A stretch of 64,000 nucleotides of DNA from Candidatus Babeliales bacterium (lineage in GTDB: Bacteria > Babelota > Babeliae > Babelales > JACPOV01): the NCBI GenBank assembly GCA_050250855.1, contig JBFWNW010000001.1, positions 96,001 through 160,000 of the forward strand, in the 5' to 3' direction. Shown here piece after piece: positions 28,509-61,801 of the stretch; the first letter of the stretch is position 1; every line of letters begins with the position of its first letter. The notes under the pieces were generated by a model. The model saw only the letters and a list, made by a program, of their open reading frames with translations, did not search any database and had not been told where the DNA came from. The translations under genes were made by a program, and so were the position numbers.

Positions 28509-28817
28509 ATGGCACTTATTTTTGAACTTAAGCTGTTTCCAGCATCTGGCAAACAAAAATGTACTATTGATGCTACAGGTCGCTTGAAATGCTATGTAAA
28601 AGCTGCTCCAGAGAAAGGAAAAGCAAATAAAGAGCTTTTAGCCTTTCTTGCCGATAGCTTAGAAATTTCTAAGGCAAGCGTTGAATTAATCGCTGGCTTT
28701 ACAGTACAACATAAAAAAATTAGGATTGAAGGTAATTGGACGTATGCTCAGGTATTAAAAAAATTGGGATTAGAAAGCGGAGTACAAGGTGCCATATTTT
28801 CAGTGGATGGGAATTGA
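28509..28817 (+). CDS. DUF167/YggU family protein
   Basis: VKAAPEKGKANKELLAFLA..L.I.K. Confidence 0.85.
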   Translation: MALIFELKLFPASGKQKCTIDATGRLKCYVKAAPEKGKANKELLAFLADSLEISKASVELIAGFTVQHKKIRIEGNWTYAQVLKKLGLESGVQGAIFSVDGN

Positions 28818-40469: not shown

Positions 40470-42013
<1,544 letters not shown>

Positions 42014-42512: not shown

Positions 42513-45533
<3,021 letters not shown>

Positions 45534-45642: not shown

Positions 45643-45758
<116 letters not shown>

Positions 45759-45765
45759 TTAATAT

Positions 45766-45799
45766 AAGCCCTGAGAGAAATCTCGGGGCTTTTTTTTTT
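45766..45799 (+). terminator. rRNA operon terminator
   Basis: aagccctgaga-gaaa-tctcggggctt followed by a T-run. Confidence 0.9.
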
Positions 45800-45960
45800 A
45801 TATTTTTTTTAATATTTTAGTCAACAGTGCAATTATATCTTCGGTTCTTTTTATTCAATTTTAAAATTTCTTTTAAATTAAATTCAAAAAAAACTTGACT
45901 AAGCTGTATATAGCTTGGTTTAATAAAAATAATGTTTTGTACAAAAGAAAAAAGGAGAGA

Positions 45961-48465
45961 ATGTTGAACTCTAAAAATTATTTTTTTTATATAACGATAT
46001 TTGTTATTAGTTTTTCTTTTGGCATCATTCGACCTACAGTAAAACGATCTTTTTCTGATTTTTCTGATGAACAATTAAAAACCATTATTATAAATTCATT
46101 TCAATTATTAGGAAAAAGTTCTTTTGAAGTTGAAGAAGAACTTTTCAAAGGTTATAAATCATTATCAAATGATTTTCGTCTAGTTAATCGTGATTCATTG
46201 CTTGAAATTGCTTATATGATGCAACGCTCAACCTGTGCAAAGCTAACTACTATTTTTGAGTTGTTGTGTGAAATACAAAATGGCTTAGCGCCGCAAGATA
46301 TAAATGGTATATATACTGCATTGGATCAAAGCAGTGAAATTATCTGTGAAAAATTTCAGGAAACCTGGACGGCACTTGAGGCTATGAGCACACCGACTGT
46401 GTATATACTTTTTGATAGCGGTTTTCAGGATACGTTTACTGCTTTAGTAGGCTTGACAGACGCAATGTGCACTAAGTTTGAGGAAACATGGACAATTCTT
46501 GCAGCAAATTGCGGATTTCCGATTGCCATTACAGGCCCAGCAACTATTGCTGCTTCAGGCAACTATTGTTTGGATCAAAATATTTTGGGCAGTATTATTA
46601 TTAGTGCAGACAATGTAAATCTTGATCTTAATCATAAACGTATTTCAAGTGGCACTCCTCATAATATTGAAGTAACTTCTCAAGGAAATATATATATATT
46701 TAATGGAATTCTTTCTGATGCAGCAAGTAGTGCTATCAGCATAACTACGTGTACTAATGTTACTATTGAAAACGTTGACTTTATTGATAATCCAGCGGGG
46801 ATTAGTGTTTTAACGTCTACGATTATTACTGTTAATAATTGTACGTTCCGCGGCAGTAGCGGTCGAGCAATGAGTTTTGATGATTCTATGCTTGGAAATA
46901 TTGCTAATTGTACCTGTGAGCTCAATACTGGTGCTACAGAAATTCTTGCAACCTTTAGCAGTCGTTGTATGCAATTTTCCAATATTGAAATTTGTAATAA
47001 TACTGGGGCGGCAGTATTTTTTCCGATACTAATTAATAATCTATCAGATTCAATATTTCAAGGCGTGCGGGTGAACGAAAATAGTGCGGCCACAGAACTT
47101 GGTGCTTTTGTTATTACAGGTACAACGCAGAATGTAAAATTTTTTGAATGCACTGTTTTTAGAAATAATGCCCCTACCCTTGCTGCTGCACTGCTAGGAG
47201 CTAATCCACAAGATATAACTTTTAACACGTTTAATATTGCTGGTAATAGTTTTTCTAATAATAGTATTCTTGTAGACGCAACAGCTTTGACAAATGGGGT
47301 ATTCAATCAGGTGCATGTTGATGATAATACGAGCTTAGCTGCACTGCGTGCTTTCCAATTGACGAACTGTAGTAATCTTGTATTTAATGGATGCAGTGCG
47401 CTTGATAACACGGCGACATCAACTCTTATTGGACTAGATTTTCAGAATTGTAATGATGGTGTAGTCAAGAATTCAAGCATTAATGATAATACAAGTTCAT
47501 CGTTATCAGTGCAGGGGATAAATATTTACAATTCTCATAATCTTACCTTTGATAGTTGCACTGCATTAGTTAATACGGCTCCAAACTGTCAAGGTATGTC
47601 TGTCGAAAATTCTACAGCATTAAAAACAGTCAACAGTCATTTTATGAACAATGTTGGTTCTGATGTAAATGGTGTGCATGCAATTTCTTCATGTACTGAT
47701 CTTATTTTTAATAATTGTACTTCATTAAATAATACGGCAACCAATGGCGTTTCGCGTGGTTTTTATATGCAGAATAGTCTAAAAGTTGTACTTGATGGAT
47801 GTCTTGCCAATGATAATCTTGGCTCAGCAACAGGACGCGGTATAGATTTCTTTGATACCCATACTTCGTGCATTATAAATAGTTTTGCAAAAATTAATCA
47901 GGGTACTAATGCAGATGGAGAAGGTATACGTTTAGAAAATTGCATTGATGTTGTATGTCAAAATAATAGTTGTCTTGGTAATACGGGAGCTATCCAAGCA
48001 AATGGTATTGCCGTAATAAGTGGTCAAGGGCATACACTACAAGGAAATATCTGTAATAATAATACGACGCGTGGGATTTATATTGAGAGTGCACCAAAAA
48101 ACACCATTGATGGTAATATTTGTAATAACCAAAATAATCGTTTTGGGATCGAGCTTGTTTCAAGTAATAGTAATAGCATAAAAGCAAATATTGCAAATAC
48201 TAATGTAACGGGTATTTCACTTGATAGTGCTAGTCTTGGTAATTGTGTGCTTAAAAATTTTACGTTATTAAATACTGATACGGGAATAAATAATCTAGGT
48301 TCAAGTAATTCATTTATACTTAATAACTCAGAACATAATGGGATTTCTGGGGTGAATAACTTTAATGGCGTACCAACGAGCATTATTGCTATATTTCAGG
48401 TTAGTGTATCAAGTTTTGTTTCGGGAACCACGAATCCATTTGTAAATGTTGATATAAGACCATAA
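45961..48465 (+). CDS. Secreted Cys-rich right-handed beta-helix protein, paralog 1
   Basis: AAGGAG RBS; signal peptide; 2x C(E/T)KFxETWT; GNYCL..LDLN cap; Asn/Cys ladder repeats. Confidence 0.85.
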   Translation: MLNSKNYFFYITIFVISFSFGIIRPTVKRSFSDFSDEQLKTIIINSFQLLGKSSFEVEEELFKGYKSLSNDFRLVNRDSLLEIAYMMQRSTCAKLTTIFELLCEIQNGLAPQDINGIYTALDQSSEIICEKFQETWTALEAMSTPTVYILFDSGFQDTFTALVGLTDAMCTKFEETWTILAANCGFPIAITGPATIAASGNYCLDQNILGSIIISADNVNLDLNHKRISSGTPHNIEVTSQGNIYIFNGILSDAASSAISITTCTNVTIENVDFIDNPAGISVLTSTIITVNNCTFRGSSGRAMSFDDSMLGNIANCTCELNTGATEILATFSSRCMQFSNIEICNNTGAAVFFPILINNLSDSIFQGVRVNENSAATELGAFVITGTTQNVKFFECTVFRNNAPTLAAALLGANPQDITFNTFNIAGNSFSNNSILVDATALTNGVFNQVHVDDNTSLAALRAFQLTNCSNLVFNGCSALDNTATSTLIGLDFQNCNDGVVKNSSINDNTSSSLSVQGINIYNSHNLTFDSCTALVNTAPNCQGMSVENSTALKTVNSHFMNNVGSDVNGVHAISSCTDLIFNNCTSLNNTATNGVSRGFYMQNSLKVVLDGCLANDNLGSATGRGIDFFDTHTSCIINSFAKINQGTNADGEGIRLENCIDVVCQNNSCLGNTGAIQANGIAVISGQGHTLQGNICNNNTTRGIYIESAPKNTIDGNICNNQNNRFGIELVSSNSNSIKANIANTNVTGISLDSASLGNCVLKNFTLLNTDTGINNLGSSNSFILNNSEHNGISGVNNFNGVPTSIIAIFQVSVSSFVSGTTNPFVNVDIRP

Positions 48466-48497
48466 GAGAATTAAGAATTAAAAAAAAGGAAAGCATA

Positions 48498-51116
48498 ATG
48501 ATGAAGGCAGTAGCAGCAAGCAAAAAAATAACACTCTGGCTGTTAGCTTTTTTGTTTATACATGTAGTCGTTCATGCAGATGATTTTTCTAGAGAAGATG
48601 CACTTTGTGAGCAGCAAGATATTACCTGGCTTGCAGAAGAAGTAAAGGATATTATAGTTTTAGTATGCCAAGAGTATGAAGATGCAGCTATGCTTGCTCA
48701 GCTCCACCCAGAACTGATAAAAGTGTATTACGATCTTAAAGCTGGTAAAGAGCCTTGTCAAGAGGAGTTAGTAAAAGCAGCACATCTTCTTATGGTGTTT
48801 CGCTCAACGGGACTTTTGCCGCTTATCTTAGAAAAAGTATGCGCTATTTTAGCCTCAGTTGAAGGTGATTTTAATCCAGTTTTTACTCTTTTGGCAGAAC
48901 AGCAAGAAATTCTTTGTGATAAGTTTCAACAAACTTGGACTATTTTTGATAATTTTTTAACACCGACTTCCATAGTATCCACTCAAAAAGATTTTGAAAA
49001 TACTTTTACAGCACTTGATCAGATGGAAGAAATTTTATGCCAAAAATTCTTAGAAACGTGGACTATTCTGCCTACGACACAACCTACTCCTATCAACGCT
49101 CCCATGGTAATTAGTCAATCTGGGTCTTATTGCTTGAATCAAGATATTGTGGGGACAATCACTATTGCAACAAGTTGCGTGCAGCTTGATTTGAACAACA
49201 AACAAATTGATGCTAATGGAGGCAATGGTATTTCAGTAGCAAGCCAAAGCACTATTATTATTGAAAATGGTTATATTGCCAATGCTGCATCAGCGGTAGC
49301 TATAGATTCTTCTAGTAATATAAAAATTTCCGCTCTAGATTTTATAGGAAATAATTTAGGCGTTTCTGCAGCTACAACTACCTTTATACAGATAGATTAT
49401 TGTACCTTTAGAGCGGGTACAAACGGCATAAGGTTTATGACTTGTACCGGGGGTAGCGTTTCTGACTGTAAATTTACCCAACATAGCTCTACTGTAATAT
49501 CTCTTAGCTTTTCTTCTGCTTGTTTTTTATTTAAAAATATAGCGATATGCAATAATACCATTACCTCTGGTAATTTAATAGCGGCAACCAATTCAGTAAG
49601 AAATATTTTTTTTGATCGAATTCTTATTAATAATAATAGTAGTAGTGGTACCCTAATTCCATTTTTTATACCACTCAATAATGTCCATGTATATAATAGT
49701 TCAATTTGTTGTAATCAAGCAGCATCTAATTTTAAAGGGATAAATGTATTTGGTTGTACGGTGCTTGATAATATTGAAATATCTAATAACCGATCAACTG
49801 GTGGTAGTGTTACGGGTATTGCTCTTGAGCCAGGAACAGGTGGTTTTGAGGATGTATTAAATGCTCAGAATATTACTATTAACAATAATAAAGCAAGCAC
49901 TACCTTTGAAGGAATAGCAAACCTATCACCGGATGTTTTTCAAGAATGTACTATTGAAAATTGTTCTATTAATAATAATAGCAGCAATGGCGCTTCTTCG
50001 GGTATACATTTTATGAGTTCCAAAAATATAACCTTACGAGAAATTTTTATTGCAAATAATTCTGCCGCGGTAAATGCAAGTAATACGTTTGATGGTGTTC
50101 GACTCAATGGGTGTAGTCAAGCAACGCTAGGTCAATGCACGGTATTTGGTAATACTTCACCAACATGCCGCGGGCTTTATATTTTAGGTACGAGTATCAA
50201 TATGCAAGTACTGGATTCTAATTTTAGTGATCAAGTAGGCGGTTCTGATTGCTTTGGGGTGCGCATTGAGGGTAATCCAAGCAATATGTATTTTGATCAT
50301 TGCACTTCGTTACGTAATACATCTACTCAAACAAATGCTAGAGGGATTGGTTTTTCAGTGTCTCTTATACTTCCAAGTTCCATAAATGTAACATTTGAAT
50401 CGTGTATAGCAAATGGAAACAATGCTTTAGCTGGTGGTGTTGCAGCAAGAGGTTATGGTTTTCATATAGTGCAATCAAGAAATTTTGAGATTCTTAATTG
50501 CATAGCAAAACATAACAGTTCGAGTGGTACTGGTTCAGGAATTTTCCTTGAAGGGCTGAACGGCAGGGATTTTATAGTTAAAAATTGTATTCTTAATGGC
50601 AATACCGGGTTGGTTTTTGGAGCTGGCATATCATCAGTTTTTTCCTACGGCATTATGCAATATACTATTTGTAATGATAATTTTGATAACGGCATACAGC
50701 TTGCTGCTGATTATGTGACTCTTGAAGGAAATATTTGCAATAATCATTTGGATGCAGCTAATGGACAGGGAATAGCTGTGAGCGGCGGTTCTGGTGGTGG
50801 TCTTAATGTTGTCAAAGGCAATATATGTAATTATAATCGGGAGGGTATTAGAATCCCAGGTACTTCAACCTTTAGTGCGAAAAACTTGACACAAAATAAT
50901 AGTTCAGTTGGTATAGTTGATCCTAATGGAGTTGGTGGGAATAATAGTTATACCAATAATACATCACAAAGAAATGGGGCAACGGGGACAAGTAATTATA
51001 GCGGAACTTTGCCGACAAGAGCAGCGCTTTTAAATACGTTTAATGTTGGAGCGGGGACCTTTACGGGGGCTGCTGGGCCACTGAATATATTTTCTAATTT
51101 GAATGTATTGCCATAA
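48498..51116 (+). CDS. Secreted Cys-rich beta-helix protein, paralog 2
   Basis: Same architecture; 2x CxKFxxTWT. Confidence 0.85.
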   Translation: MMKAVAASKKITLWLLAFLFIHVVVHADDFSREDALCEQQDITWLAEEVKDIIVLVCQEYEDAAMLAQLHPELIKVYYDLKAGKEPCQEELVKAAHLLMVFRSTGLLPLILEKVCAILASVEGDFNPVFTLLAEQQEILCDKFQQTWTIFDNFLTPTSIVSTQKDFENTFTALDQMEEILCQKFLETWTILPTTQPTPINAPMVISQSGSYCLNQDIVGTITIATSCVQLDLNNKQIDANGGNGISVASQSTIIIENGYIANAASAVAIDSSSNIKISALDFIGNNLGVSAATTTFIQIDYCTFRAGTNGIRFMTCTGGSVSDCKFTQHSSTVISLSFSSACFLFKNIAICNNTITSGNLIAATNSVRNIFFDRILINNNSSSGTLIPFFIPLNNVHVYNSSICCNQAASNFKGINVFGCTVLDNIEISNNRSTGGSVTGIALEPGTGGFEDVLNAQNITINNNKASTTFEGIANLSPDVFQECTIENCSINNNSSNGASSGIHFMSSKNITLREIFIANNSAAVNASNTFDGVRLNGCSQATLGQCTVFGNTSPTCRGLYILGTSINMQVLDSNFSDQVGGSDCFGVRIEGNPSNMYFDHCTSLRNTSTQTNARGIGFSVSLILPSSINVTFESCIANGNNALAGGVAARGYGFHIVQSRNFEILNCIAKHNSSSGTGSGIFLEGLNGRDFIVKNCILNGNTGLVFGAGISSVFSYGIMQYTICNDNFDNGIQLAADYVTLEGNICNNHLDAANGQGIAVSGGSGGGLNVVKGNICNYNREGIRIPGTSTFSAKNLTQNNSSVGIVDPNGVGGNNSYTNNTSQRNGATGTSNYSGTLPTRAALLNTFNVGAGTFTGAAGPLNIFSNLNVLP

Positions 51117-51161
51117 TGACGGTATAGAGAAAAAATAAACATTGAAAAAGGAGCTTTTTAT

Positions 51162-53696
51162 ATGAATTTTTCATTAATAAAAAGGAAAATAATTCTACCG
51201 TTTTTTATGGTTTTGTGTGTGAATGCTTTTGCGCATAATTCCTATGAATGCCGTACAGATACAGCTTTAAAAAAGCTTATTCTGACAACCTGTAATGAGA
51301 TTCAAAAAGAAGGATTGCTGGATCAATTAGACCCTTACATTGTAACCTGTTACTATCTTCTTTGCAGTGATAAAGAAGTAGAATATGATTATTTGCTGGA
51401 TGTTGCTGCCATGATTCACCGCTCATGCGGAGGTTCTGGTTGCCCATCTATTTTAAAGCAAATTAATGATAAATTGTGTGAGATTTTAGATTTTGATTTT
51501 AACAATGTTTTTACAGCTATTGCTGGCAATACAGAAGTTGCTTGTGAAAAATTTGAGCAAACTTGGACTATTATAGCGGGCATTTCTGAAGTAATGTCTG
51601 TAACATTTGATTTTACAGATTTTTCTTCTGTATTTACAAAAATCGATGCCATAGAAGAATCATTGTGTGATAAGTTTGGGCAAACATGGACAATTTTGGC
51701 AGCAGGATGTACGCCACCAACGCCCATTAGTGCACCAACAACTATCTCAAGTCCTGGTACGTATTGCCTTACGGCTGATATTAGCGGATTAATTACTATT
51801 GCTGCTGATCGCGTAGTACTTGATTTAAATAATCATGAAATTTCTGGTGCTTCACCTAGCAATATTATTATTGCAAATCATAGTGATATTACGATTAAGA
51901 ATGGCCGTATTTCTGGAGCTGGCACGAACTGTATTGATACTGCTACGTGTGAAAACATAAAAATTTTGAATATTGAATTTTCTGATAGTCCGACTGCTCT
52001 TGCTGTTTTAACAACTACCTGCATTCAAATTGATAAGTGTACTTTCAGAGGCTTTTCAAGTGAAGCCCTTTGTTTTAATAATGTTAATAGCTCAGAGGTT
52101 TCAAACTGCAGCTTTTTTAGCAATAGCGGCACCCGATTAATATTTGTTGATACCTGCAACTGTATAAATTTTGTAAATCTTGAAATGTGCAATAATTTTT
52201 CATCAAATGAATTGATTGGTGTTGTGGGAAGCTCCTCATGTGGCTTGAATTTTTTCAATTGTTCTTTTAATGGCAATAGAACTACGACAGCAAGTCTTAC
52301 TCCTCCTAATCTAGCGGGGTTTAGTTTAACAACCTGCCGGGCTGTTATTTATAATAAATGTTGTGTTAATAGCAATATAGCGGAGCATATTTTTATAGGG
52401 CTTGTGTTTAATGATTGTAAAGATGTAATTATAAAAACGGTTGATATTAATAGTAATAGTTTACTACAAGGAGATCCAGATACTTCTCTCTCTGCTATTG
52501 CCGTTAATGATATTATTGCGCCATCTGATAGTAACAGTTTTCTTTTAGAGGATATCCAGATAAATAATAATACTACACCTCAAGATGCGAGATTAATCTT
52601 TTTTAGTGGTGTAAATAATATAAATATAAGAACAGCTACGCTTCAAAATAATATATTTAATGGAAGCTCTTCTCAAGCTATTAATTTAGGAAACGTTGAT
52701 AATTATGTTTTTGATTCTATTGCAATTTTTAATAATCGTTGTGTTGGTGGGATATTTACAGGAATTTCGCTTTCAAGTGGCAATAGGGGTATTGTAAAAA
52801 ATTGTAGTGTATCGGAAAACCTTGGAGGTTCAGATGTAGAAGGATTAGGTGCTACATCATCCCAAGATGTTCAAGTGGTCAACTGCTGTTTTAACGATAA
52901 TATTGGCAGTGATGCTTACGGTGCTCGCATCTATTCATCTAGCAACGATGTTATTCATATTCACTGTTGTTCATTGCGCAATACTGCTACTGCAGGTACT
53001 GCACGAGGATTTTTTTCAGAAGATTCACAAGAAGTTATTTTTGATTCATGTATAGCAAATGATAACGTTGGTACCGATTCTGGCCGAGGTTTTGATATTC
53101 GCTTAACGCAGACGTCATCTGTTATTAAATGTACTGCAAAACGCAATCAGGGTACTTGTGGTGAGGGTATTCATGTAGAAAATAATTGCTTTGATATCGT
53201 AGTAAAAGAATGCATTGCAATTGGTAATACTGGGACCGTAGAAGGTCAAGGTATTTCAATTCTTACTTCAACTATGAATGTAGTGCAAGGAAATACCTGC
53301 AATGATAATACAACCAATGGTATTTTATTGAATAGTACCATCAAGAATGTTGTATTAAATAATACCTGCAACAATAATGGCGGCATTGGTCTTTCATTAA
53401 TTTCAAGTACTAGTAATTTAATCAAAGCGAATTTTGCAAGTTATAATAGTGATGGCATCGTGCTTTCAAGTAGTAGTAATGCAAATTGTGTGTTTAAAAA
53501 TATTGTACAAGCAAATAATGCAACCGGTATTAGTAATACAGGTTTGGATAATGCCTTCTTTAAAAATAAAGCGCAAGATAATACAACCAATTTCAGTGGT
53601 GTAGCTGCTGCAGCAATTGGTGTTTTTTCTTTTGGTTCAGGGACGTATACCTTTGGACCGCCAAATAACTATAGTAATATTTCGGTGGTACCATAA
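51162..53696 (+). CDS. Secreted Cys-rich beta-helix protein, paralog 3
   Basis: Same architecture; 2x CxKFxQTWT. Confidence 0.85.
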   Translation: MNFSLIKRKIILPFFMVLCVNAFAHNSYECRTDTALKKLILTTCNEIQKEGLLDQLDPYIVTCYYLLCSDKEVEYDYLLDVAAMIHRSCGGSGCPSILKQINDKLCEILDFDFNNVFTAIAGNTEVACEKFEQTWTIIAGISEVMSVTFDFTDFSSVFTKIDAIEESLCDKFGQTWTILAAGCTPPTPISAPTTISSPGTYCLTADISGLITIAADRVVLDLNNHEISGASPSNIIIANHSDITIKNGRISGAGTNCIDTATCENIKILNIEFSDSPTALAVLTTTCIQIDKCTFRGFSSEALCFNNVNSSEVSNCSFFSNSGTRLIFVDTCNCINFVNLEMCNNFSSNELIGVVGSSSCGLNFFNCSFNGNRTTTASLTPPNLAGFSLTTCRAVIYNKCCVNSNIAEHIFIGLVFNDCKDVIIKTVDINSNSLLQGDPDTSLSAIAVNDIIAPSDSNSFLLEDIQINNNTTPQDARLIFFSGVNNINIRTATLQNNIFNGSSSQAINLGNVDNYVFDSIAIFNNRCVGGIFTGISLSSGNRGIVKNCSVSENLGGSDVEGLGATSSQDVQVVNCCFNDNIGSDAYGARIYSSSNDVIHIHCCSLRNTATAGTARGFFSEDSQEVIFDSCIANDNVGTDSGRGFDIRLTQTSSVIKCTAKRNQGTCGEGIHVENNCFDIVVKECIAIGNTGTVEGQGISILTSTMNVVQGNTCNDNTTNGILLNSTIKNVVLNNTCNNNGGIGLSLISSTSNLIKANFASYNSDGIVLSSSSNANCVFKNIVQANNATGISNTGLDNAFFKNKAQDNTTNFSGVAAAAIGVFSFGSGTYTFGPPNNYSNISVVP

Positions 53697-53720
53697 AAAG
53701 TAGAAAAAAAGGATGAATCA

Positions 53721-56090
53721 ATGAAGCAACGTCAAGGTAACTTGTTTTTTGTAGTGCTAAGCCTATTGAGTTTTAGCAGTCTAAAAGCAGAATTTAATAA
53801 CGAAGATTTTAGTGTTGAATTTGTGGAGCTTGCAGAATATCGCAGTGGTTGTGATAAATTAACGCCAATTTTAAATAAGGCATGCCAAATAGAAGCAACT
53901 GTTACGGTATTTGATTTTAGTGGCGTTTATACAGCAATTGAAGCAAATACAGAGCTTTTTTGTGAAAAGTTTGAGCAAACCTGGACTATTCTCGCTGCTA
54001 TTGAGCAAAATCAAGAAATTGTAGATGAAAATCAGTTTGCTCAAACTTTTACTGCTATTGTTCAAGTGACTGAAATTCTTTGTGGTAAGTTTCAGCAAAC
54101 TTGGACTATTCTTGGATGCTCTGCTCCAATACCAGTGACACAGCCAACAACTATTGCAAACTCAGGAAACTATATTGTAACGACAACGATTAATGGTGCT
54201 ATAATAATTGCAGCTGATCAGGTTTCTCTTGATTTAAACCAACATAAAATTACTGGCGCCTCTCCTGATAATATTTCAATCTCTGGCCAGAGTGATATAA
54301 CTATTTTCAATGGCACTATTCAAAATGCTACTACCAATGGTATTGATATTGCCAATTGTACAAATGTAAAAATTATTGATATTGATTTTGTATCAAATGT
54401 AACTGCTATTAATGTGCTTACTACAACCTGTTTGAAAATAGAAAACTGTACTTTTAGCGCACAAACAGGTGGTGGTATTTTTATTGATAATACCAATAGC
54501 ATCGCCATTAATTCATGCAAATTTAATATCAATTCATGTAGTACTATGCTTAGCTTGGAAGATTCGTTATGCATTAATTGTAATGACGTTGCGATATGTT
54601 TTAATGGGACGCTTTCTTCCACAATACCATTTCTTCCTATTGTTGCTCGAAGAATTAACAATGCACTTTTTAGTAATTGTAAGATTACCAGTAATAACTT
54701 TTCGTCAAATCTAGCACAAGTTTGGCGAGGTTTTACCTTTGAATCAAGCAGTAATATTGCCCTACAAAAATGCTCAATAAGTACTAATCCTGCAACCGCT
54801 GGCGGCACTAATAATTTTATTGGCATTGCTTTTGAACCTACTTGTCAAAACGTAGCCCTTGATGGGATTGATATCGTTGCCAATACCGTATCGCTTTCAT
54901 TTACTGCTATACGAGCAGACTCTTTATCAAATGCGCGACTCTATAATATTTTTATTGATTCAAATAGTGTTACTAATGGCAGTAATACCGGTTTATACTT
55001 CAATAACTGCCAAGATATTACCGGTGAGGGTTTGGTAGTAAGTTCTAATGTTGCAACAAATCAAATTACTGGCTATGAAGCTTTTGCGAGTAATAAATGT
55101 ATGCTGCGTAATGCTGAGTTTAATAATAACAGAACAACTGGCGTATTTGATTCACGAGGGATTTATTTTTCAGGATGTAATAATATTATTTTGCAAACTG
55201 TGCAAGCTCAAGATAATGCTACTACAGGGAGCACAGAAGGTATTACATTTGATAGTTGTAATCAAGTAGTGCTGAATAGTTCCATTACTAATAATAACGT
55301 TGGCAATAATAGTTCCATTGGGGTGAGAATAGTTGATGGGTGCTCCGATATTTTACTTGATAATTGTGTTTCATCTTCAAATTGCGGATTGTTAAGTAGT
55401 TCCACAACACGAGGATTTTTAGCAGAAAATAGCACTAAAATTATATTTAATTATTGTGTAGCCATGGATAATGGAGGAGCTGGGATAGTGAGAGGATTTG
55501 ATGTACGCAATACCACAACCTCATGTATTTTAAATTGTACTGCAGTAGGAGAGCTAAGTACTGCTATTGCTATTGAGCTTGATTCATGCGCTGAAATAAT
55601 CGTTCAAAATTATAGTGCCAGTTTCCTTGGATTAGGTATTAATGTAAATAATACAGCGAATGCTATCATTAAAGATAGTAATTTTATTACGGGTCCTTCT
55701 GGTAATGTAGGTATGAATCTTGTAGATTCAAATCGGATTATTATAGAGGGTAATAGCGTAAAAGGCCACTCTAGAGGCTTAGAATTTACACGCAGTAGTA
55801 CGAACACTATACAAGGCAATATATTTGATAATAATAGTTTTTCGGGAGTAAGGGTTAACACAGTAGATAGCGTTGAAAACTTTTTCTTTAAAAATATTGC
55901 TAATTTCAATACATTATCCGTAGGTTTTATTGATGCCGCTTCTAATTTAAATACTTATTTTTTAAATAAAGCACAGCAGAATGGTTCGGATTTTTCTTCA
56001 ATTGCTCCTGTTGCAATCTTTGATATGTCTACCGGTGCATTTGTCACAACAACAACCTCTCCCTTTGATAATCTTTCAATAGTTCCGTAG
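53721..56090 (+). CDS. Secreted Cys-rich beta-helix protein, paralog 4
   Basis: Same architecture; 2x CxKFxQTWT. Confidence 0.85.
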   Translation: MKQRQGNLFFVVLSLLSFSSLKAEFNNEDFSVEFVELAEYRSGCDKLTPILNKACQIEATVTVFDFSGVYTAIEANTELFCEKFEQTWTILAAIEQNQEIVDENQFAQTFTAIVQVTEILCGKFQQTWTILGCSAPIPVTQPTTIANSGNYIVTTTINGAIIIAADQVSLDLNQHKITGASPDNISISGQSDITIFNGTIQNATTNGIDIANCTNVKIIDIDFVSNVTAINVLTTTCLKIENCTFSAQTGGGIFIDNTNSIAINSCKFNINSCSTMLSLEDSLCINCNDVAICFNGTLSSTIPFLPIVARRINNALFSNCKITSNNFSSNLAQVWRGFTFESSSNIALQKCSISTNPATAGGTNNFIGIAFEPTCQNVALDGIDIVANTVSLSFTAIRADSLSNARLYNIFIDSNSVTNGSNTGLYFNNCQDITGEGLVVSSNVATNQITGYEAFASNKCMLRNAEFNNNRTTGVFDSRGIYFSGCNNIILQTVQAQDNATTGSTEGITFDSCNQVVLNSSITNNNVGNNSSIGVRIVDGCSDILLDNCVSSSNCGLLSSSTTRGFLAENSTKIIFNYCVAMDNGGAGIVRGFDVRNTTTSCILNCTAVGELSTAIAIELDSCAEIIVQNYSASFLGLGINVNNTANAIIKDSNFITGPSGNVGMNLVDSNRIIIEGNSVKGHSRGLEFTRSSTNTIQGNIFDNNSFSGVRVNTVDSVENFFFKNIANFNTLSVGFIDAASNLNTYFLNKAQQNGSDFSSIAPVAIFDMSTGAFVTTTTSPFDNLSIVP

Positions 56091-56124
56091 TTTTTTTAAG
56101 GAAGTAAAAAAAGGAAGACATACT

Positions 56125-59100
56125 ATGCAAGAAAAATGGTTAATAAAACTAAGTTTATTGATACTTTTTGTTCCCGTGATATCTTTTCATGCTGAGCAAC
56201 CTAAAAATCATATGATTTCTTTATATGATTTAGAAGTTGAAGCTGTTTTATCGCCATTGATGGCAGAATATGCTGAATTGCTTCCAATAACATATGCATA
56301 TTATAAAAATAGTGCGCAAGGGCAAACTTCTTTTTCTTCAGAAGAACTTTCTAATGTAATCTCAGAACTCTCCGATTTTATAGAAACCTATTCAACAAGA
56401 TCAGGTAGTTTGCATGGTGATCGTGGTTCACGCCCTGATGCGCCGCCATTAATAGCAAATGATGCGGTTGTTGGTAAGAGTTGTTGCGATTTAACGCAAG
56501 TTATAGCACTCCTTGGCGCATTAAAAAAACTACTTATTAAGATAGAGTTTGAGTTGTGTGAAAAGTTTGAGTTTACTTGGTCGATACTCGACAAAATAGA
56601 TATTGATATTAACGGTATATTTACCGCAATAGATGCAATACAATGTCCAACGGTTGACTTGTCTGGCATATTTACGGCCCTTGAATTTGGATTCTATGAT
56701 ACGCAGACAATATTGTGTGAAAAGTTTGAATTCACTTGGTCAGCGCTTGAGAAAATAGATATTGATGTTAACGGCATTTATACGGTGCTTGAAAATCTTA
56801 CTATAACGTTGAGTGTAGGTGAATTAACAATCAATGCAACAATAGATCTCTCTGGTGTGTTTACGGCACTTGAGTTTGGCTTCTATGATACACAAACAAT
56901 CTTGTGTGAAAAGTTTGAGTTTACTTGGTCGGCACTTGAGAAGATAGATATTGATGTTAACGGTATATTTACCGCATTGAACGATATTACGATTAATGCG
57001 ACCGTTGATGTAGATCTCTCTGGTGTGTTTACGGCACTTGAATTTGGCTTCTATGATACGCAAACAATACTGTGTGAAAAGTTTGAGTTTACTTGGTCGG
57101 CACTGGAGAAAATAGATATTGATATTAACGGGATATTTACCGCATTGAACGATATTACGATTAATGCAACCGTTGATGTAGATCTCTCTGGTGTGTTTAC
57201 GGCACTTGAGTTTGGCTTCTATGATACGCAAACAATACTGTGTGAAAAGTTTGAGTTTACTTGGTCGGCACTTGAGAAAATAGATATTGATGTTAATGGT
57301 ATATTTACCGCATTGAATGATATTACGATCAATGCGACCGTTGATGTAGATCTCTCTGGTGTATTTACTGCCCTAGAGTTCGGCTTCTATGATACGCAAA
57401 CAATACTGTGTGAAAAGTTTGAGTTTACTTGGTCGGCACTTGAGAAAATAGATATTGATGTTAATGGTATATTTACCGCATTGAATGATATTACGATCAA
57501 TGCGACCGTTGATGTAGATCTCTCTGGTGTGTTTACGGCACTTGAGTTTGGTTTCTATGATACACAAACAATACTGTGCGAAAAGTTTGAGTTTACTTGG
57601 TCGATACTCGACAAAATAGATATTGATGTTAATGGTATATTTACCGCAATAGACGCAATACAATGCCCAACGGTTGACTTGTCTGGCATATTTACCGCAC
57701 TTGAATTTGGCTTTTATGATACGCAAACAATTATCTGTGAAAAATTTGAATTCACTTGGTCAGCGCTTGAGAAAATAGATATTGATATTAACGGGATATT
57801 TACTGCATTGAACGATATTACGATTAATGCGAGCGTTGATGTAGATCTCTCTGGTGTATTTACTGCCCTAGAGTTCGGTTTCTATGATACACAAACAATC
57901 TTGTGTGAAAAGTTTGAGTTTACTTGGTCGGCACTTGAGAAAATAGATATTGATATTAACGGTATATTTACCGCAATAGATGCAATACAATGTCCAACGG
58001 TTGACTTGTCTGGCATATTTACGGCACTTGAGTTTGGTTTCTATGATACACAAACAATCTTGTGTGAAAAGTTTGAGTTTACTTGGTCGGCACTTGAGAA
58101 GATAGATATTGATATTAACGGTATATTTACCGCATTGAACGATATTACGATTAATGCGACCGTTGATGTAGATCTCTCTGGTGTGTTTACGGCCCTAGAG
58201 TTCGGCTTCTATGATACGCAAACAATACTGTGTGAAAAGTTTGAGTTTACTTGGTCGGCACTTGAGAAAATAGATATTGATGTTAATGGTATATTTACCG
58301 CATTGAATGATATTACGATCAATGCGACCGTTGATGTAGATCTCTCTGGTGTATTTACGGCCCTAGAGTTCGGCTTCTATGATACGCAAACAATACTGTG
58401 TGAAAAGTTTGAGTTTACTTGGTCGGCACTTGAGAAGATAGATATTGATATTAATGGTATATTTACCGCAATAGACGCAATACAATGCCCAACGGTTGAC
58501 TTGTCTGGCATATTTACCGCACTTGAATTTGGCTTTTATGATACGCAAACAATTATCTGTGAAAAATTTGAACAAACGTGGACTATTCTTAATGCACTAT
58601 GTAACGGTATTGAAGGGTTGCAAGCATCAATTGATGATCTATGTTGTGAAATCTTTGATGACTTTGAGCAGACGATGACTCTTCTCGTAGAAATTAAAGA
58701 CGATATCTTTGAGACGCAAACAATTCTATGTAGTAAGTTTGAGCAAACGTGGACTATTTTAGACGCAGTGTGCAATAAATTTGAGCAAACATGGACAATA
58801 CTTGCGTGCAATGTTTCAGTTCCAATTTCTGCAGCAACAACAATTAGTAATCCAGGAACGTATTGTTTGATTAATGATATTGTGGGTACTATTACCATTG
58901 CTGCTGATAGTGTAACGCTTGATTTAAATGGAAAATCGATATCTGGAGGAGCAAATGGTGTTTACTCAAGTAATCATACTGATATAACAATAAAAAATGG
59001 TCTTATTAAAAATGCTACTGAAAATGGCATTAAGTTTACCAATGTAACTGATATCTCGATATTTTCTATTAAGCTTAGAAATAATACAAAAGGCATAGCA

Positions 59101-60693
59101 CTAAATTCTGTTAAAGGTGGCTTTATTACAGAGAGTATTATGCTAGAAAATGCTACAGGCCTTGAACTGGTGCAAACATCAAAAGTTTTTGTAAAAAATT
59201 GCATAGCACAAGAAAATACGATTGTTGGTTTTTCATTAGTAGATTCAGATAATAATACGTTTAAAGAATGTACTGCAATGTGCAATGGTCTAAGTGGTAA
59301 TGATAGTGCCTATGGATTTATTTCAGATAACGGGCGTTCGAATATTTTTGAGCAGTGCAATGCGCAGGGAACAATCACAACGCAAACTACATTAGATTTC
59401 GTTGCTGCTGGTTTTGCCCTGACCGGTTCAGAAATGTGTACTAAAATTATCAGTTGTGAAAGTTTTGATAATACCACCCCTACGACCGGATTTGCAATTC
59501 CATATGGTATTTTATTAACCTATACATTCACAGTCACAGATCTGATAGTAACAGATTCAGTAACAGTAATTCCTGCAGCTACTGTTGCATCAGTTAACTG
59601 GTCACCAAATGGTAAGTTCCTAGCTATAGGAAGTTTTGGTTCCCCACAAACTCGTATCTATGCGTTTGATGGCATTAATTTGATGCAAGTTGCTACTGCG
59701 GTGCATGGAATTCTTATTCGCTCCGTTAACTGGTCACCGGATAGTAAATACCTAGCCATTGGAGGGGGTTTTAGTGGTGGTGTTCAAGTTCGCGTCTATG
59801 CTTTTAGCGGTGTGAGTTTGACGCAAGTTGCTTCTGCAGCACCAGCACTAGTAGGTTCTATTGCATCAGTTAACTGGTCACCGGATGGTAAATACCTAGC
59901 CGTTGGAGGGACTATGAGTGACATTTTCGTCTATGCCTTTGATGGGGTAAGTTTGACGCAAGTTGCTTCTGAAGCACCTGGAGCTATTGTAAACTCAGTT
60001 AACTGGTCACCTGATGGTAAATACCTAGCCATTGGAAGGAGTAGTGGTGAGATTCTCGTCTATGCCTTTGATGGGGTAAATTTGACGCAAGTTGCTACTG
60101 AAACACTTGCAGGTAGTGTAAACTCAGTTAACTGGTCACCGAATTGTAAGTTCTTAGCTACTGGACTTGATAGTGGTCCTGAGCTTCGCGTCTATGCTTT
60201 TAGCGGTGTAAGTTTGACGCAAGTTGCTACAGGACCTGTAGGAACTCCCGTTTTATCAGTTGATTGGTCACCCGATGGTAAATTCCTAATTACTGGAGGC
60301 TCTGCAGTTCGTGTCTATGCCTTTAATGGATTGGTCCTGACGCAAGTTGCTACTGCAGCAGTACCTATGGGAATGACTGTTTTCTCAGTTGATTGGTCAC
60401 CAGACGGTAGTTATATTGGCTTAGGAAAAGATGGTTCTCCAGAGGTTATTGTTTATAATGCTTTTGCATGGGAGCCGACGAGAAATATTATCAAAAATAA
60501 CCTTCTCTATTGCAATGTTGGCAATGAGTGTCCCGGTGGTGTTGGTATTTCTGGTTCGAGCCTTAAAAATTTAATTATTGGCAATACTGCCTATGAAAAT
60601 ACAGCAAACTATGAATTTGTGACGAATGTATATAAAGATGGTATTAATAATAGCCCAAGTACCTTAGAAAATGTTTCCGTTCCGCCATATTAG
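56125..60693 (+). CDS. Secreted repeat-stalk + beta-helix + 7-blade WD40-like propeller protein, paralog 5
   Basis: 12 tandem 53-63-aa repeats, beta-helix, seven SV(N/D)WSP repeats. Confidence 0.88.
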   Translation: MQEKWLIKLSLLILFVPVISFHAEQPKNHMISLYDLEVEAVLSPLMAEYAELLPITYAYYKNSAQGQTSFSSEELSNVISELSDFIETYSTRSGSLHGDRGSRPDAPPLIANDAVVGKSCCDLTQVIALLGALKKLLIKIEFELCEKFEFTWSILDKIDIDINGIFTAIDAIQCPTVDLSGIFTALEFGFYDTQTILCEKFEFTWSALEKIDIDVNGIYTVLENLTITLSVGELTINATIDLSGVFTALEFGFYDTQTILCEKFEFTWSALEKIDIDVNGIFTALNDITINATVDVDLSGVFTALEFGFYDTQTILCEKFEFTWSALEKIDIDINGIFTALNDITINATVDVDLSGVFTALEFGFYDTQTILCEKFEFTWSALEKIDIDVNGIFTALNDITINATVDVDLSGVFTALEFGFYDTQTILCEKFEFTWSALEKIDIDVNGIFTALNDITINATVDVDLSGVFTALEFGFYDTQTILCEKFEFTWSILDKIDIDVNGIFTAIDAIQCPTVDLSGIFTALEFGFYDTQTIICEKFEFTWSALEKIDIDINGIFTALNDITINASVDVDLSGVFTALEFGFYDTQTILCEKFEFTWSALEKIDIDINGIFTAIDAIQCPTVDLSGIFTALEFGFYDTQTILCEKFEFTWSALEKIDIDINGIFTALNDITINATVDVDLSGVFTALEFGFYDTQTILCEKFEFTWSALEKIDIDVNGIFTALNDITINATVDVDLSGVFTALEFGFYDTQTILCEKFEFTWSALEKIDIDINGIFTAIDAIQCPTVDLSGIFTALEFGFYDTQTIICEKFEQTWTILNALCNGIEGLQASIDDLCCEIFDDFEQTMTLLVEIKDDIFETQTILCSKFEQTWTILDAVCNKFEQTWTILACNVSVPISAATTISNPGTYCLINDIVGTITIAADSVTLDLNGKSISGGANGVYSSNHTDITIKNGLIKNATENGIKFTNVTDISIFSIKLRNNTKGIALNSVKGGFITESIMLENATGLELVQTSKVFVKNCIAQENTIVGFSLVDSDNNTFKECTAMCNGLSGNDSAYGFISDNGRSNIFEQCNAQGTITTQTTLDFVAAGFALTGSEMCTKIISCESFDNTTPTTGFAIPYGILLTYTFTVTDLIVTDSVTVIPAATVASVNWSPNGKFLAIGSFGSPQTRIYAFDGINLMQVATAVHGILIRSVNWSPDSKYLAIGGGFSGGVQVRVYAFSGVSLTQVASAAPALVGSIASVNWSPDGKYLAVGGTMSDIFVYAFDGVSLTQVASEAPGAIVNSVNWSPDGKYLAIGRSSGEILVYAFDGVNLTQVATETLAGSVNSVNWSPNCKFLATGLDSGPELRVYAFSGVSLTQVATGPVGTPVLSVDWSPDGKFLITGGSAVRVYAFNGLVLTQVATAAVPMGMTVFSVDWSPDGSYIGLGKDGSPEVIVYNAFAWEPTRNIIKNNLLYCNVGNECPGGVGISGSSLKNLIIGNTAYENTANYEFVTNVYKDGINNSPSTLENVSVPPY
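56596..58596 (+). repeat. In-frame tandem repeat array of 12 units (159/168/189 bp)
   Basis: The tg(t/c)gaaaa(g/a)tttga anchor recurs at spacings 159,189,168,168,168,168,159,168,159,168,168,159. Confidence 0.95.
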
Positions 60694-60757
60694 GTGATAT
60701 TATGAAAGTAAGTTAACTTACTTTTGTTATTTTTCTCAATGATGAAAGCTTTTGTTC

Positions 60758-61801
60758 ATGAAGAATTTAATTCTTTGTTTAGTATTGTTTCGTAACCTTT
60801 TAGGAAATGTTGACTATTTAGAAGTACCTTCATTAAAAGATACCAATATTTTAGCATATAAAGCGGGTGTTCGTCCCTATAGGAAAACAGGAATTCGCTT
60901 AGAGGCAGAGTGGTATAATAAAAAATTGCTTATTCATAATTATGGCCATGGTGGCGCAGGGCTTACACTTTCATGGGGTAGCGCGCAAGAGGTTTTTAAT
61001 ATATTAAACCAAGAGATTAATGCGCATAAAGAGTTAGATAAAGAAAAAACAATAGCAATTATCGGTGGTGGCATTGTAGGTCTTTGTGTTGCTGATATAT
61101 TACTTGAGCATGGTTATAGCGTAAAAATGTATGCAGAAAAAAAATATCATGAGACTACATCTAATGTAGCAGCAGGATTTTTTGGTGCATTTTCAGTTGC
61201 AATAGCAGATGATGAAGATAAAAAACAGCAATTTGATCGAATACTTAAATGGTCAGAAAAAAAATTGCTAGAGCTCTATGAATCTGAAGATCAATGTATC
61301 AAGGGTATTACTTATACAGATTTTTATATTTTTAATACTGAAAATGAGCAAGATACTGTACATTTTAGTAATGGTATGGAAGCTACCTGTCGTAAAAAAA
61401 ATAAATTTATTATGAAAGGCCCCCTTTACCTTGAAAGTATTTTTAACAAGGTTGCAGCGCATGGAGCTCAAATAATAGAAAAACGATTTGATACTCTTAA
61501 TGACATTTTAGGATTACCAGAATCAATTATTATCAATTGCACAGGAATGGGAGCTAAGATTCTTTTTAATGATCCAGATCTTATTGGTATTAAAGGACAC
61601 CTTGTTCATATAGAAAAAAATAATTTTGATGTTCTTATTGGAAATGATGGAACTGATTCATTCTTCATTATGCCGTGGGAAGATAGACTTGTTTTAGGAA
61701 GTAGATTTGTCCAGGAATATGATAATGATAGTTGTGAAATTGACATAGAACAATGTTGTAAAGTTTTGGAATTAGCCAGAAAATTTTTTAATACAAAATA
61801 A
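60758..61801 (+). CDS. D-amino-acid oxidase-like FAD oxidoreductase, circularly permuted
   Basis: GVRPYR..HNYGHGGAGLTLSWG precedes IAIIGGGIVG; TSNVAAG; INCTGMGA; KGH. Confidence 0.82.
   Translation: MKNLILCLVLFRNLLGNVDYLEVPSLKDTNILAYKAGVRPYRKTGIRLEAEWYNKKLLIHNYGHGGAGLTLSWGSAQEVFNILNQEINAHKELDKEKTIAIIGGGIVGLCVADILLEHGYSVKMYAEKKYHETTSNVAAGFFGAFSVAIADDEDKKQQFDRILKWSEKKLLELYESEDQCIKGITYTDFYIFNTENEQDTVHFSNGMEATCRKKNKFIMKGPLYLESIFNKVAAHGAQIIEKRFDTLNDILGLPESIIINCTGMGAKILFNDPDLIGIKGHLVHIEKNNFDVLIGNDGTDSFFIMPWEDRLVLGSRFVQEYDNDSCEIDIEQCCKVLELARKFFNTK

Follow-up and report, generated by a model that had tools for sequence, protein, structure and literature searches.

Passengers of autotransporters consist of a long regular right-handed beta-helix and carry a Sec signal peptide, and both features are shared by the products of five genes found in the window, by which we mean the whole stretch of 64,000 nucleotides analysed here. 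The passenger of Bordetella Vag8 (PDB 7akv) is the top match in the structural comparison with VIA-align (Z 30.7, rmsd 2.8 over 398 residues). Autotransporters, however, end in a C-terminal beta-barrel, which is lacking both in the window proteins and in the genome that encodes them, and they do not possess the N-terminal cysteine-bearing helical repeat stalk and the cap found here. The chlamydial Pmps are a multi-gene paralog family of obligate intracellular bacteria with repeated GGA(I/L/V) and FxxN motifs. In the five window proteins the former motif (GGA[ILV]) is never encountered and the latter (F..N) occurs 2–8 times, the POMP_repeat (TIGR01376) is absent among their NCBIfam matches and there is no barrel, which reduces the link to the Pmps and to the cysteine-rich chlamydial envelope, drawn in the preliminary description of this DNA, to an analogy.

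Phage tailspikes and pre-neck appendages (Sf6 TSP, phi29 gp12 and the CBA120 TSPs) present a beta-helical rod of similar length (Z 27–29), and the tailspikes resemble the window family also in their modular N-terminal mount, in a receptor-binding body that varies, and in having paralogs that are numerous and diversified, although the window proteins bear signal peptides and have no conserved residues of a catalytic groove. A search against PHROG (E ≤ 0.001) returned nothing for genes 1–4 and only families of unknown function for gene 5, the best of them on its propeller, and no phage genes were found around the array, the neighbours of which are rRNA and housekeeping genes. The best structural match in all the libraries searched is a beta-helix protein of a Klosneuvirinae-type giant virus (BFVD, Barrevirus A0A3G4ZPJ5; Foldseek E 6.1e-17, TM 0.50/0.59 over 740 columns at 15% identity, with predicted models on both sides); viruses of this type are, like the Dependentiae, parasites of protists. 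Finally, the AlgE4 and AlgE6 C5-epimerases, the PL6/PL9 lyases and NosD reach Z values of 29.6–30.5 and show weak profile similarity (E 7e-6), but the window proteins have far longer and more regular rungs in addition to the stalk and the cap, and conserved catalytic or metal-binding residues like those of the enzymes are lacking in the window family. No nos or ABC partner adjoins any of the four clusters in which the family is encoded, a further difference from NosD.

The array and the shared plan of its products

The five reading frames lie co-oriented on the forward strand at positions 45961–60693, immediately downstream of an rRNA operon that ends with the 5S rRNA (45644–45758) and a strong terminator hairpin (45766–45791, forward strand; an 11-bp stem with a T-run) placed directly 5′ of the array. 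Gene 1 (45961–48465) encodes 834 residues from its ATG, or 856 residues from an alternative TTG at 45895, and is followed on the same strand by gene 2 (48498–51116, 872 residues), gene 3 (51162–53696, 844 residues), gene 4 (53721–56090, 789 residues) and gene 5 (56125–60693, 1522 residues as assembled). The intergenic gaps from gene 1 to gene 5 are 32, 45, 24 and 34 bp, and an AAGGA-type purine run precedes the ATG of each gene; the layout reported in the preliminary description, with five co-oriented genes 24–45 bp apart, a ribosome-binding site for each and the rRNA terminator directly upstream, therefore holds throughout. A weak putative sigma-70-like promoter (TTGACT, 18 nt, TTTAAT) was recognised by eye at 45895–45924 of the forward strand; it is absent from the promoter scan because its second hexamer has no A at position 2. 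Since the gaps are short and no terminators were found between the five genes, the sequence makes a single transcript likely. Three DNA runs from a single landfill-metagenome study, including two that are possible sources of the window's DNA, yielded short-read contigs that agree with the unique parts of the array with zero differences.

The products share a single plan comprising a signal peptide, in most cases a variable N-terminal domain, 41-residue repeats, a cap and a right-handed beta-helix, with the cap and the C-terminus both conserved, and the common stalk, cap and beta-helix that had been recognised earlier are confirmed by the alignment, Pfam and the AF2 model. The gene 1 product has an N-terminal helical domain, an RS motif, two stalk repeats (46273–46518) and a long beta-helix, and terminates with ...NVDIRP. 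The products of genes 2 and 3 are laid out in the same way, with the stalk repeats encoded at 48843–49088 and 51471–51716, respectively, and in that of gene 4 the N-terminal domain is largely missing (stalk repeats 53889–54131, cap approximately 54123–54320).

Genes 1–4 are paralogs with 32–36% identity. In their alignment the RS motif (R89 S90), the cap residues I196, G200, Y202, I208, G210, I212, I214, V219, L221, D222, L223 and N224, and the C-terminal residues F812, N829 and P834 are invariant, and the conserved C-terminal part corresponds to one short strand that closes the protein. The pairwise identity is 42–49% in the stalk and cap as opposed to 16–29% in the central helix, where there are also indels; the stalk, the cap and the first rungs are the best conserved regions, and variability is highest in the N-terminal domain and in the central helix. 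Together with the propeller in gene 5, the variability of the central helix substantiates the earlier notion of diversified heads. The Pfam Beta_helix model (PF13229, cut-off 25.9) scores 83.9, 66.8, 79.4, 76.0 and 36.4 bits in genes 1–5, respectively, and NosD (PF05048, cut-off 23.6) scores 28.1–45.4. The asparagine content is 10.8–12.8% in genes 1–4, and cysteine accounts for 3.4, 3.3, 4.9, 3.4 and 2.3% of residues in genes 1–5, being highest in gene 3; of the cysteine-rich character ascribed to the proteins, the repeat cysteines and a cysteine ladder in the helix do exist, but the overall content is moderate.

The array had been regarded as a five-gene system, a view that has to be abandoned, as it constitutes one of four clusters of a family of 27 ORFs, which together take up 66,084 nt or 5.4% of the source genome. 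The five genes are tandem paralogs within this large, lineage-typical family.

The stalk repeats and the propeller of gene 5

The motif C.[KR]F..[TS][WM][TS] is present in two copies in each of genes 1–4 and in 15 copies in gene 5, within units of approximately 41 residues that follow the consensus D-l-S-G-i-F-T-A-L ... C-E-K-F-E-x-T-W-T-I-L and contain a single cysteine each; across the family in the source genome, the copy number of the stalk unit ranges from 2 to 40. The stalk units are predicted to be helical. They are helical by DSSP in the AF2 monomer model, albeit at a pLDDT below 50, the hydrophobic moment over 128 units peaks at 110 and not at 160–180 degrees, and Pro or Gly is found at just two of 35 positions of the unit, with the cysteine falling at a core-like position of the predicted amphipathic helix. 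Borderline Pfam matches of the stalks point to coiled-coil-like families. Baculo_PEP_C (PF04513, cut-off 38) reaches a borderline 38.6 bits on the gene 5 stalk and 52.6 (P0019), 31.8, 29.5 and 29.4 bits in relatives, with zero matches for the stalks of genes 1–4, and probably reflects helical-repeat composition rather than homology. A complex prediction with three copies of residues 24–260 of gene 4, run without controls, gave scores of 0.08 and 0.02, the mark being 0.42, and speaks neither for nor against a trimer.

As no Pfam model scores above its cut-off on the 41-residue cysteine repeat and the cap in genes 1–4, the two could be defined as new domains. The ESM Atlas yielded stalk matches of 0.80–0.83, under the counting level, and the whole protein led to generic beta-helix clusters only; in the literature covered, the cysteine-bearing repeat stalk is previously undescribed. 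In the relatives L105, L106 and P0004, 11-residue 'FNGTFSAL..CC' units are found where the window proteins have the 41-residue units.

In gene 5 the signal peptide and the N-terminal domain are followed by an RPDAP motif, the 15 repeats, the cap, a short beta-helix, a propeller and the terminal ...ENVSVPPY. The expanded stalk is encoded by a tandem DNA repeat at 56843–58470 of the forward strand (168-bp unit, 9.8 copies, 87% matches), and the cap with the short beta-helix by 58837–59514 (residues 905–1130, approximately). The WD40-like beta-propeller (59545–60459, approximately residues 1141–1445) is evident both from the Pfam WD40 model (PF00400, 77.2 bits with a cut-off of 27) and from the AF2 model of a 643-residue segment, in which four-stranded blades occupy residues 262–566 with pLDDT values mostly of 80–95; TRF also detects a 129-bp repeat at 59866–60230, within the propeller region. 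The repeat number of 15 is not secure, since the contigs of all three short-read runs break between 56589 and 58543, inside the repeats, and a 1192-residue form of gene 5 with fewer repeats is present on another contig (P0003). In gene 5 and at least five of the scanned paralogs, most of the helix is replaced by a WD40-like propeller, and the putative heads in the family comprise a long beta-helix, a helix with a propeller, and modules joined in series with as many as 13 caps.

Fold, export and possible function

We consider the products of the array and their paralogs to be exported, modular and fast-diversifying host-contact or surface fibre proteins, a reading to which we assign a probability of about one half. 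For gene 4, AF2 yields a model with a mean pLDDT of 80.2 and values above 90 for most of residues 140–600, in which residues 135–789 form a regular beta-helix with rungs of 26–31 residues, a ladder of asparagines and cysteines and hardly any loop insertions. Foldseek comparison with the PDB gives TM values of at most 0.26 because the register slips along the long solenoid, and VIA-align was therefore used instead; with canonical right-handed beta-helices it returns Z values of 28–31 and rmsd values of 2.2–2.9, the scores for Vag8, the AlgE4 epimerase, NosD and the Sf6 tailspike being 30.7, 30.5, 29.6 and 28.8, respectively. With the top matches to the predicted model tied, the fold alone fails to separate adhesins from enzymes.

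It is possible, though unlikely, that the proteins are polysaccharide-active lyases, hydrolases or epimerases, which would be secreted through a type II secretin and cut the glycans of the host glycocalyx, cyst wall or food vacuole, the many paralogs corresponding to many substrates. By sequence, the closest solved structures are mannuronan C5-epimerases, with AlgE4 as the best match, together with a pectate lyase and the K1 capsule lyase, all of them weak matches (E 7e-6 to 5e-4). Lyases, epimerases and tailspikes are numerous among the Foldseek and VIA-align matches, and a gene for a protein with a Heparinase II/III N-terminal domain lies just past the C4 cluster; beta-helix pectate lyases are, moreover, classical substrates of type II secretion. 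Against such activity, 49 positions reach a conservation of 70% or more across 26 family members, and the single charged one among them, D171, is located in the cap, the others being occupied by I, G, N, C, T, L or F. In genes 1–4, R599, E659 and K765 are the charged residues of the helix body that are invariant; they are spaced by 60 and 106 residues and form no cluster, as they are approximately two and four rungs apart. The uniform rungs have hardly any loops that could shape a substrate groove, no CAZy-type Pfam families match the five products beyond the generic Beta_helix and NosD, and the propeller-headed members retain only a short helix. An enzyme site shared by the whole family is thus unlikely, given one charged residue in 49 conserved positions and nearly no loop insertions, and paralog-specific sites remain compatible with these observations; to our knowledge, the tailspike-type enzymes likewise have no catalytic residues conserved family-wide. 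The near lack of conserved charged residues fits a role without catalysis, like that of a fibre or an adhesin.

The N-termini of all five products resemble type-I signal peptides without a lipobox, as judged by pattern and by eye, which agrees with the export proposed for them previously; in the family, a crude pattern detects signal peptides in 19 of the 27 ORFs and four more were recognised by eye. No autotransporter domain is found in the five proteins by Pfam, and a search of the 95%-complete genome for the PF03797 barrel gave none, with matches in the control genomes, so that the absence of a barrel noted for the five genes extends to the genome. The TPS domain of FHA-type TpsA proteins (Pfam Haemagg_act) is likewise not detected in the five proteins at E ≤ 0.01. 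The source genome encodes two secretins and a VKOR-type oxidase, and TM6 genomes are reported to encode type II secretion, with gspD present in two copies (PMC4776705). With the barrel and the two-partner domain both absent, a secretin channel would be the likeliest route of release or display, as deduced from the presence and absence of components and not from a substrate signal. The proteins contain no lipobox, transmembrane segment, barrel or known sorting signal that would serve as an anchor, and full release or retention in the periplasm is therefore possible.

As host-contact fibres, the proteins would be exported by the Sec pathway and acquire disulfides in the periplasm with the aid of VKOR, after which they would be released or displayed via one of the two secretin channels and act as non-enzymatic fibres or adhesins. 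Their reach would be set by the length of the stalk, and their binding specificity would come from the variable helix face or the propeller, with the repertoire diversified by gene duplication, changes in repeat number and head swapping, as in other host-dependent microbes. A more tentative extension of this model, which we find less plausible as a whole, would have phylum-wide, barrel-less 'tailspike'-like fibres, composed of an N-terminal mount, a disulfide-stapled helical repeat stalk that rapidly gains and loses units, a cap and interchangeable heads, exported through a secretin and determining the host range among protists, with an origin shared, or sequences exchanged, with the beta-helix proteins of giant viruses that infect protists.

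A role as effectors within the host cell or vacuole, where the proteins would act as scaffolds or mimics and bind host proteins via the helix face or the propeller, appears improbable as well. Gene 5 and paralogs of it bear WD40-like propellers, the family is a large one that evolves fast and is specific to its lineage, and genome papers propose that secreted repeat proteins of Dependentiae with ankyrin and WD40 repeats are effectors that interfere with the host (PMC4378268, PMC6561590, PMC4776705). Rods of 800–2400 residues with a periplasmic-type cysteine content and variable stalks, however, better suit extracellular display, and the conserved stalk, cap and C-terminus resemble elements for assembly or mounting.

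There is a smaller chance that the five products assemble with one another, as hetero-oligomers cross-linked by disulfides, into a fibre or coat specific to the infectious stage. The tight spacing of the genes with no terminator between them, the one cysteine per stalk repeat at a core-like helix position and the VKOR-type oxidase would accord with such an assembly, as would the borderline stalk match to Baculo_PEP_C, a family of baculovirus occlusion-body envelope proteins, that envelope being thiol-linked. Since the plan occurs in 27 ORFs of four clusters, and relatives carry family members as single genes or in arrays of other sizes, five does not represent a fixed stoichiometry; furthermore, the paralogs are merely 32–36% identical, and in the gene 4 model most cysteines of the helix take the same turn position rung after rung, in a ladder without obvious disulfide pairs. 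Least probable of all, the proteins would have no host-facing role and be structural components internal to the periplasm or envelope, or a largely neutral, selfishly expanding repeat family, as the missing outer-membrane anchor or export signal and the match to the periplasmic NosD would permit, but the high cost of 5.4% of a reduced 1.22-Mb genome, the reading frames that are intact apart from assembly gaps, the retention of the module in 56 of 145 genera and the absence of a nosFY-type partner beside the clusters all speak against it.

The family in the source genome and across the phylum

The members of the Dependentiae, a phylum of wide distribution, live as obligate parasites of protists. 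The source genome, a landfill metagenome assembly of the Dependentiae/Babeliales type, has no dedicated partner gene beside any of the four clusters, the neighbours of which are the rRNA genes and genes for a DAO-type oxidoreductase, methyltransferases, RuvB, YebC, YicC, a SET-domain protein, an ABC ATPase and a tRNA-binding protein, besides the Heparinase II/III protein mentioned above. The closest genome compared contains no close ortholog (188 bits at best, against more than 1000 for the self match). Among the genomes of the phylum that were compared, 84 of 261, and 56 of the 145 genera represented, match the stalk-cap module at E ≤ 1e-8. In a library of 1.84 billion proteins, with all taxa taken together, 13,406 cluster representatives match the stalk-cap profile. 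A word-based homology search with gene 3 gave only 13 matches because such searches depend on shared words, and the idea of a very rare family was ruled out by the exhaustive profile search, by which it is far larger. Pattern searches for related loci in genome contigs and for the stalk motif in IMG/VR viral contigs produced 18 and 62 pattern matches, respectively, with none confirmed in either set.

In their main text, the genome papers on Dependentiae deal with repeat proteins, among them those with ankyrin and WD40 repeats, but not with the stalk-beta-helix family (PMC6561590, PMC4776705, PMC4378268), which the literature covered, these papers included, leaves undescribed, although their supplementary tables may list its members as hypothetical proteins. 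Judging from sequence, the larger gene family probably makes the host-contact fibres of the cell. It provides a specific candidate for the apparatus by which Dependentiae contact their hosts, as it takes up such a share of the genome, carries export signals, is present in approximately a third of the genomes of the phylum that were compared and varies mainly in the putative binding parts. Should the proteins arrive at the surface with neither a barrel nor a two-partner system, the route of their export and anchoring would itself be of interest. The DAO gene downstream of the array has counterparts in relatives that are only 32–40% identical.

Organization of the array

Genes 1-5 (45961-48465, 48498-51116, 51162-53696, 53721-56090 and 56125-60693, all forward-strand ORFs encoding secreted stalk and beta-helix proteins) are preceded by a complete rRNA operon, which comprises the 16S rRNA (40470-42013), two tRNAs, the 23S rRNA (42515-45533) and, as its last gene, the 5S rRNA (45644-45758), with a strong terminator hairpin (45766-45791) at its end. 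The genes are spaced by 32, 45, 24 and 34 bp, and an AAGGA-type run precedes the ATG in each. Since a sequence scan found no terminator-like site in any of the four gaps and promoter-like sites occur at chance level (82 versus 71.5 +/- 7.2 in shuffled sequence), a single transcript for the putative operon is plausible. The coordinates and motifs of the preliminary description were all reproduced by ORF calls, motif counts and alignment, and the shared five-gene plan that it had noticed holds for the ORFs, motifs, stalk, cap, helix and C-terminus. The next gene (60752-61801, forward strand) lies 58 bp further on, beyond an AT-rich hairpin identified by eye, and its product is an FAD oxidoreductase of the DAO family (PF01266, 85.5 bits) with a signal-peptide-like N-terminus; beside exported Cys-bearing proteins such a flavoprotein might be an oxidase, although nothing connects the two.

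Architecture of the encoded proteins

All five N-termini start with a basic stretch, continue through hydrophobic residues and finish in an x-H/Q/K-A-type end, from which pattern, together with inspection by eye, the signal peptides were assigned; a lipobox is absent from all five. Next comes a variable helical domain in genes 1-3 and 5, mostly missing from gene 4, and then a short conserved motif, which reads RS in genes 1-4 but RPDAP in gene 5 and several relatives. The stalk consists of units of about 41 residues, each closing with C-x-K-F-x-x-T-W-T-I-L, with two units in each of genes 1-4 and 15 in gene 5. The stalk is probably helical, because in 128 units of the genome Pro and Gly are confined to 2 of 35 positions and the hydrophobic moment has its maximum at 110 degrees, not 160-180, and because AlphaFold renders the units as long helices, at a pLDDT below 50. 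Borderline Pfam matches of the stalk to Baculo_PEP_C and other coiled-coil-like families are read as helical-repeat composition.

The stalk leads into a cap with the consensus P-I-x-A-P-T-T-I-x-x-x-G-x-Y-C-L-x-x-D-I-x-G-x-I-x-I-x-A-x-x-V-x-L-D-L-N, after which a right-handed beta-helix is modelled with high confidence (mean pLDDT of 80.2 for gene 4, above 90 over most of residues 140-600). The rungs of the gene 4 model are highly uniform at 26-31 residues and have Cys, Ser or Asn in one of their turn positions and Asn in a second one, in agreement with the Asn/Cys ladder previously proposed. The proteins end in a conserved strand, F/Y-x-N-(L/V/I)-x-(I/V)-x-P. The parts best conserved among genes 1-4 are the stalk, the cap and the first rungs, at 42-49% identity; the least conserved are the N-terminal domain, at 22-28%, and the central helix, at 16-29% and with indels. 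Mounting or assembly through the ends, combined with binding of something variable by the middle, would be expected to give this pattern.

Gene 5 retains only about nine rungs, which are followed by a WD40-like propeller (Pfam WD40, 77.2 bits; AF2 segment model, pLDDT 78.5) and the terminus ...ENVSVPPY. A 168-bp unit, repeated in tandem (9.8 copies, 87% matches), encodes its stalk. The repeat number is uncertain, because contigs of three short-read runs end at 56589 and restart at 58543, with breaks, back-joints and skips, and because a separate 1192-aa form of gene 5 (P0003) is present on a 25,418-bp contig; these may reflect real length variation or assembly collapse.

A family within the genome and the phylum

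When every ORF of 120 aa or more in the genome assembly (1,218,285 bp, 11 contigs, 95% complete) was searched with profiles, 27 family ORFs were identified, which occupy 66,084 nt, or 5.4% of the DNA. Judged by CysS, the closest relative with a name is a 'Candidatus Dependentiae bacterium' MAG, at 58% identity. Besides the array at 45961-60693, they form clusters at C1:3-29315 (11 genes), C1:337203-348018 and C4:157739-173256 (seven genes, of which the first encodes 2427 aa and 40 repeats), with one fragment at a contig end. The strict Cys motif is found in 18 ORFs, and a short helix with a propeller in gene 5 and five scanned paralogs; a sixth paralog has the same C-terminus. No shared partner gene was seen beside the clusters, the adjoining genes being rRNA or housekeeping genes. 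A SET-domain protein (C1:336512-337171, 62.9 bits), with a eukaryote-like histone methyltransferase-type domain, adjoins the third cluster, and a Heparinase II/III N-terminal domain protein (C4:173574-174500, 70 bits) lies directly downstream of the seven-gene cluster. At C1:344179-344278, a 100-N scaffold gap falls at the overlap of 1302-aa and 692-aa family ORFs, probably one gene of about 1950 aa that is interrupted by a repeat region left unresolved in the assembly and not by a frameshift.

A word-based protein search retrieved only 13 relatives of gene 3. An exhaustive search of 1.84 billion cluster representatives with the stalk and cap profile (149 positions) gave 13,406 matches at E<=0.001, 1,258 at E<=1e-10 and 118 at E<=1e-30. 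Among the best 150 of the 13,406, 79 have at least two repeats and a cap, 64 have at least two caps and fewer than two repeats, three have repeats only and four are of other types. In some relatives, 11-residue 'FNGTFSAL..CC' units occupy the place of the 41-residue units. Two scanned multi-cap giants (3187 and 4160 aa) are helix-propeller modules in series. Tandem genes of about 3200 aa (one of 4160 aa), with five to seven cap matches each and without stalk repeats, occur at G224:C1:349392-392512 in a relative's genome and elsewhere; proteins P0022, P0025, P0027 and P0028 are examples, and the two scanned with Pfam, P0022 and P0028, combine short beta-helices and WD40-like propellers. The cap and helix module probably extends to other phyla, because some multi-cap matches have signal peptides rich in Ala and are nearly devoid of Cys.

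Within the phylum, the stalk and cap profile matches 84 of the 261 genomes examined at E<=1e-8, which represent 56 of 145 genera and include 64 of the 189 high-quality genomes, often in tandem arrays. The stalk motif was not found in IMG/VR viral contigs. In the nearest genome examined, the best match to genes 1-4 scores 188 bits and no close ortholog is present, so the array turns over quickly.

Export and possible function

The predicted fold is a canonical right-handed beta-helix, for which the autotransporter passenger Vag8 (Z of 30.7), AlgE4 (30.5), NosD (29.6), the Sf6 tailspike (28.8) and phi29 gp12 (28.6) are effectively tied; the fold is therefore uninformative on function. As first noted for the array, no autotransporter barrel is present in the five proteins, nor in the 95%-complete genome, which encodes two secretins and a VKOR-type disulfide oxidoreductase. 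For TM6 genomes, PMC4776705 reports a type II secretion system that includes gspD in two copies. The reading that we prefer, at a probability of about 0.5, is that the proteins would be exported by Sec, then fold oxidatively, be released or displayed through a secretin and act as host-contact fibres or adhesins that diversify; everything beyond Sec export is inferred.

Secreted glycan-active enzymes are an unlikely alternative: D171, in the cap, is the only charged residue when 26 members are compared at the 49 positions that at least 70% of them share, the rungs are nearly free of loop insertions, and in some members the helix is shortened and a propeller stands in for most of it, all of which is easier to reconcile with a rod of structural or binding function than with an enzyme. 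Effectors working inside the host are given the same low probability. Less likely still is the hetero-oligomeric, disulfide-linked coat of the infectious stage envisaged in the preliminary description, of which the exported, barrel-less beta-helix rods stand, but the five genes prove to be only part of a 27-ORF family. A periplasmic or neutral role is the least probable.

Chlamydial Pmps are likewise a beta-helix paralog family of an intracellular bacterium. The array proteins share this with Pmps and autotransporter passengers, but differ in lacking the barrel, and neither the GGA[ILV] motif nor a POMP_repeat match was found in the five by motif count and NCBIfam scan. They resemble phage tailspikes in shape and modularity, but genes 1-4 have no PHROG match and there is no phage gene context. 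The closest structural match in the libraries searched is to predicted models of Klosneuvirinae-type giant-virus beta-helix proteins (E 6.1e-17, TM 0.50/0.59, 15% identity), which offers a lead, and nothing beyond, towards possible convergence or exchange between protist parasites. No description of the family was found by literature searches or by term look-ups in the Dependentiae genome papers PMC6561590, PMC4776705 and PMC4378268. Exported beta-helix paralog families are known from host-dependent microbes; among them, a probably helical Cys-repeat stalk joined to a cap and to a head that is either a beta-helix without a barrel or a propeller is a new architectural variant.

Elsewhere in the window, a BamA-type Omp85 protein with POTRA domains (10648-13389, forward strand) and a GspF/PilC-type platform protein (28789-29985, forward strand) fit a cell with a diderm envelope and an apparatus for type II secretion or type IV pili. 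The reverse strand at 18646-20172 encodes a protein that strongly matches the RPE65/carotenoid-oxygenase family (PF03055, E 1.6e-109); in other respects the genome seems metabolically reduced.
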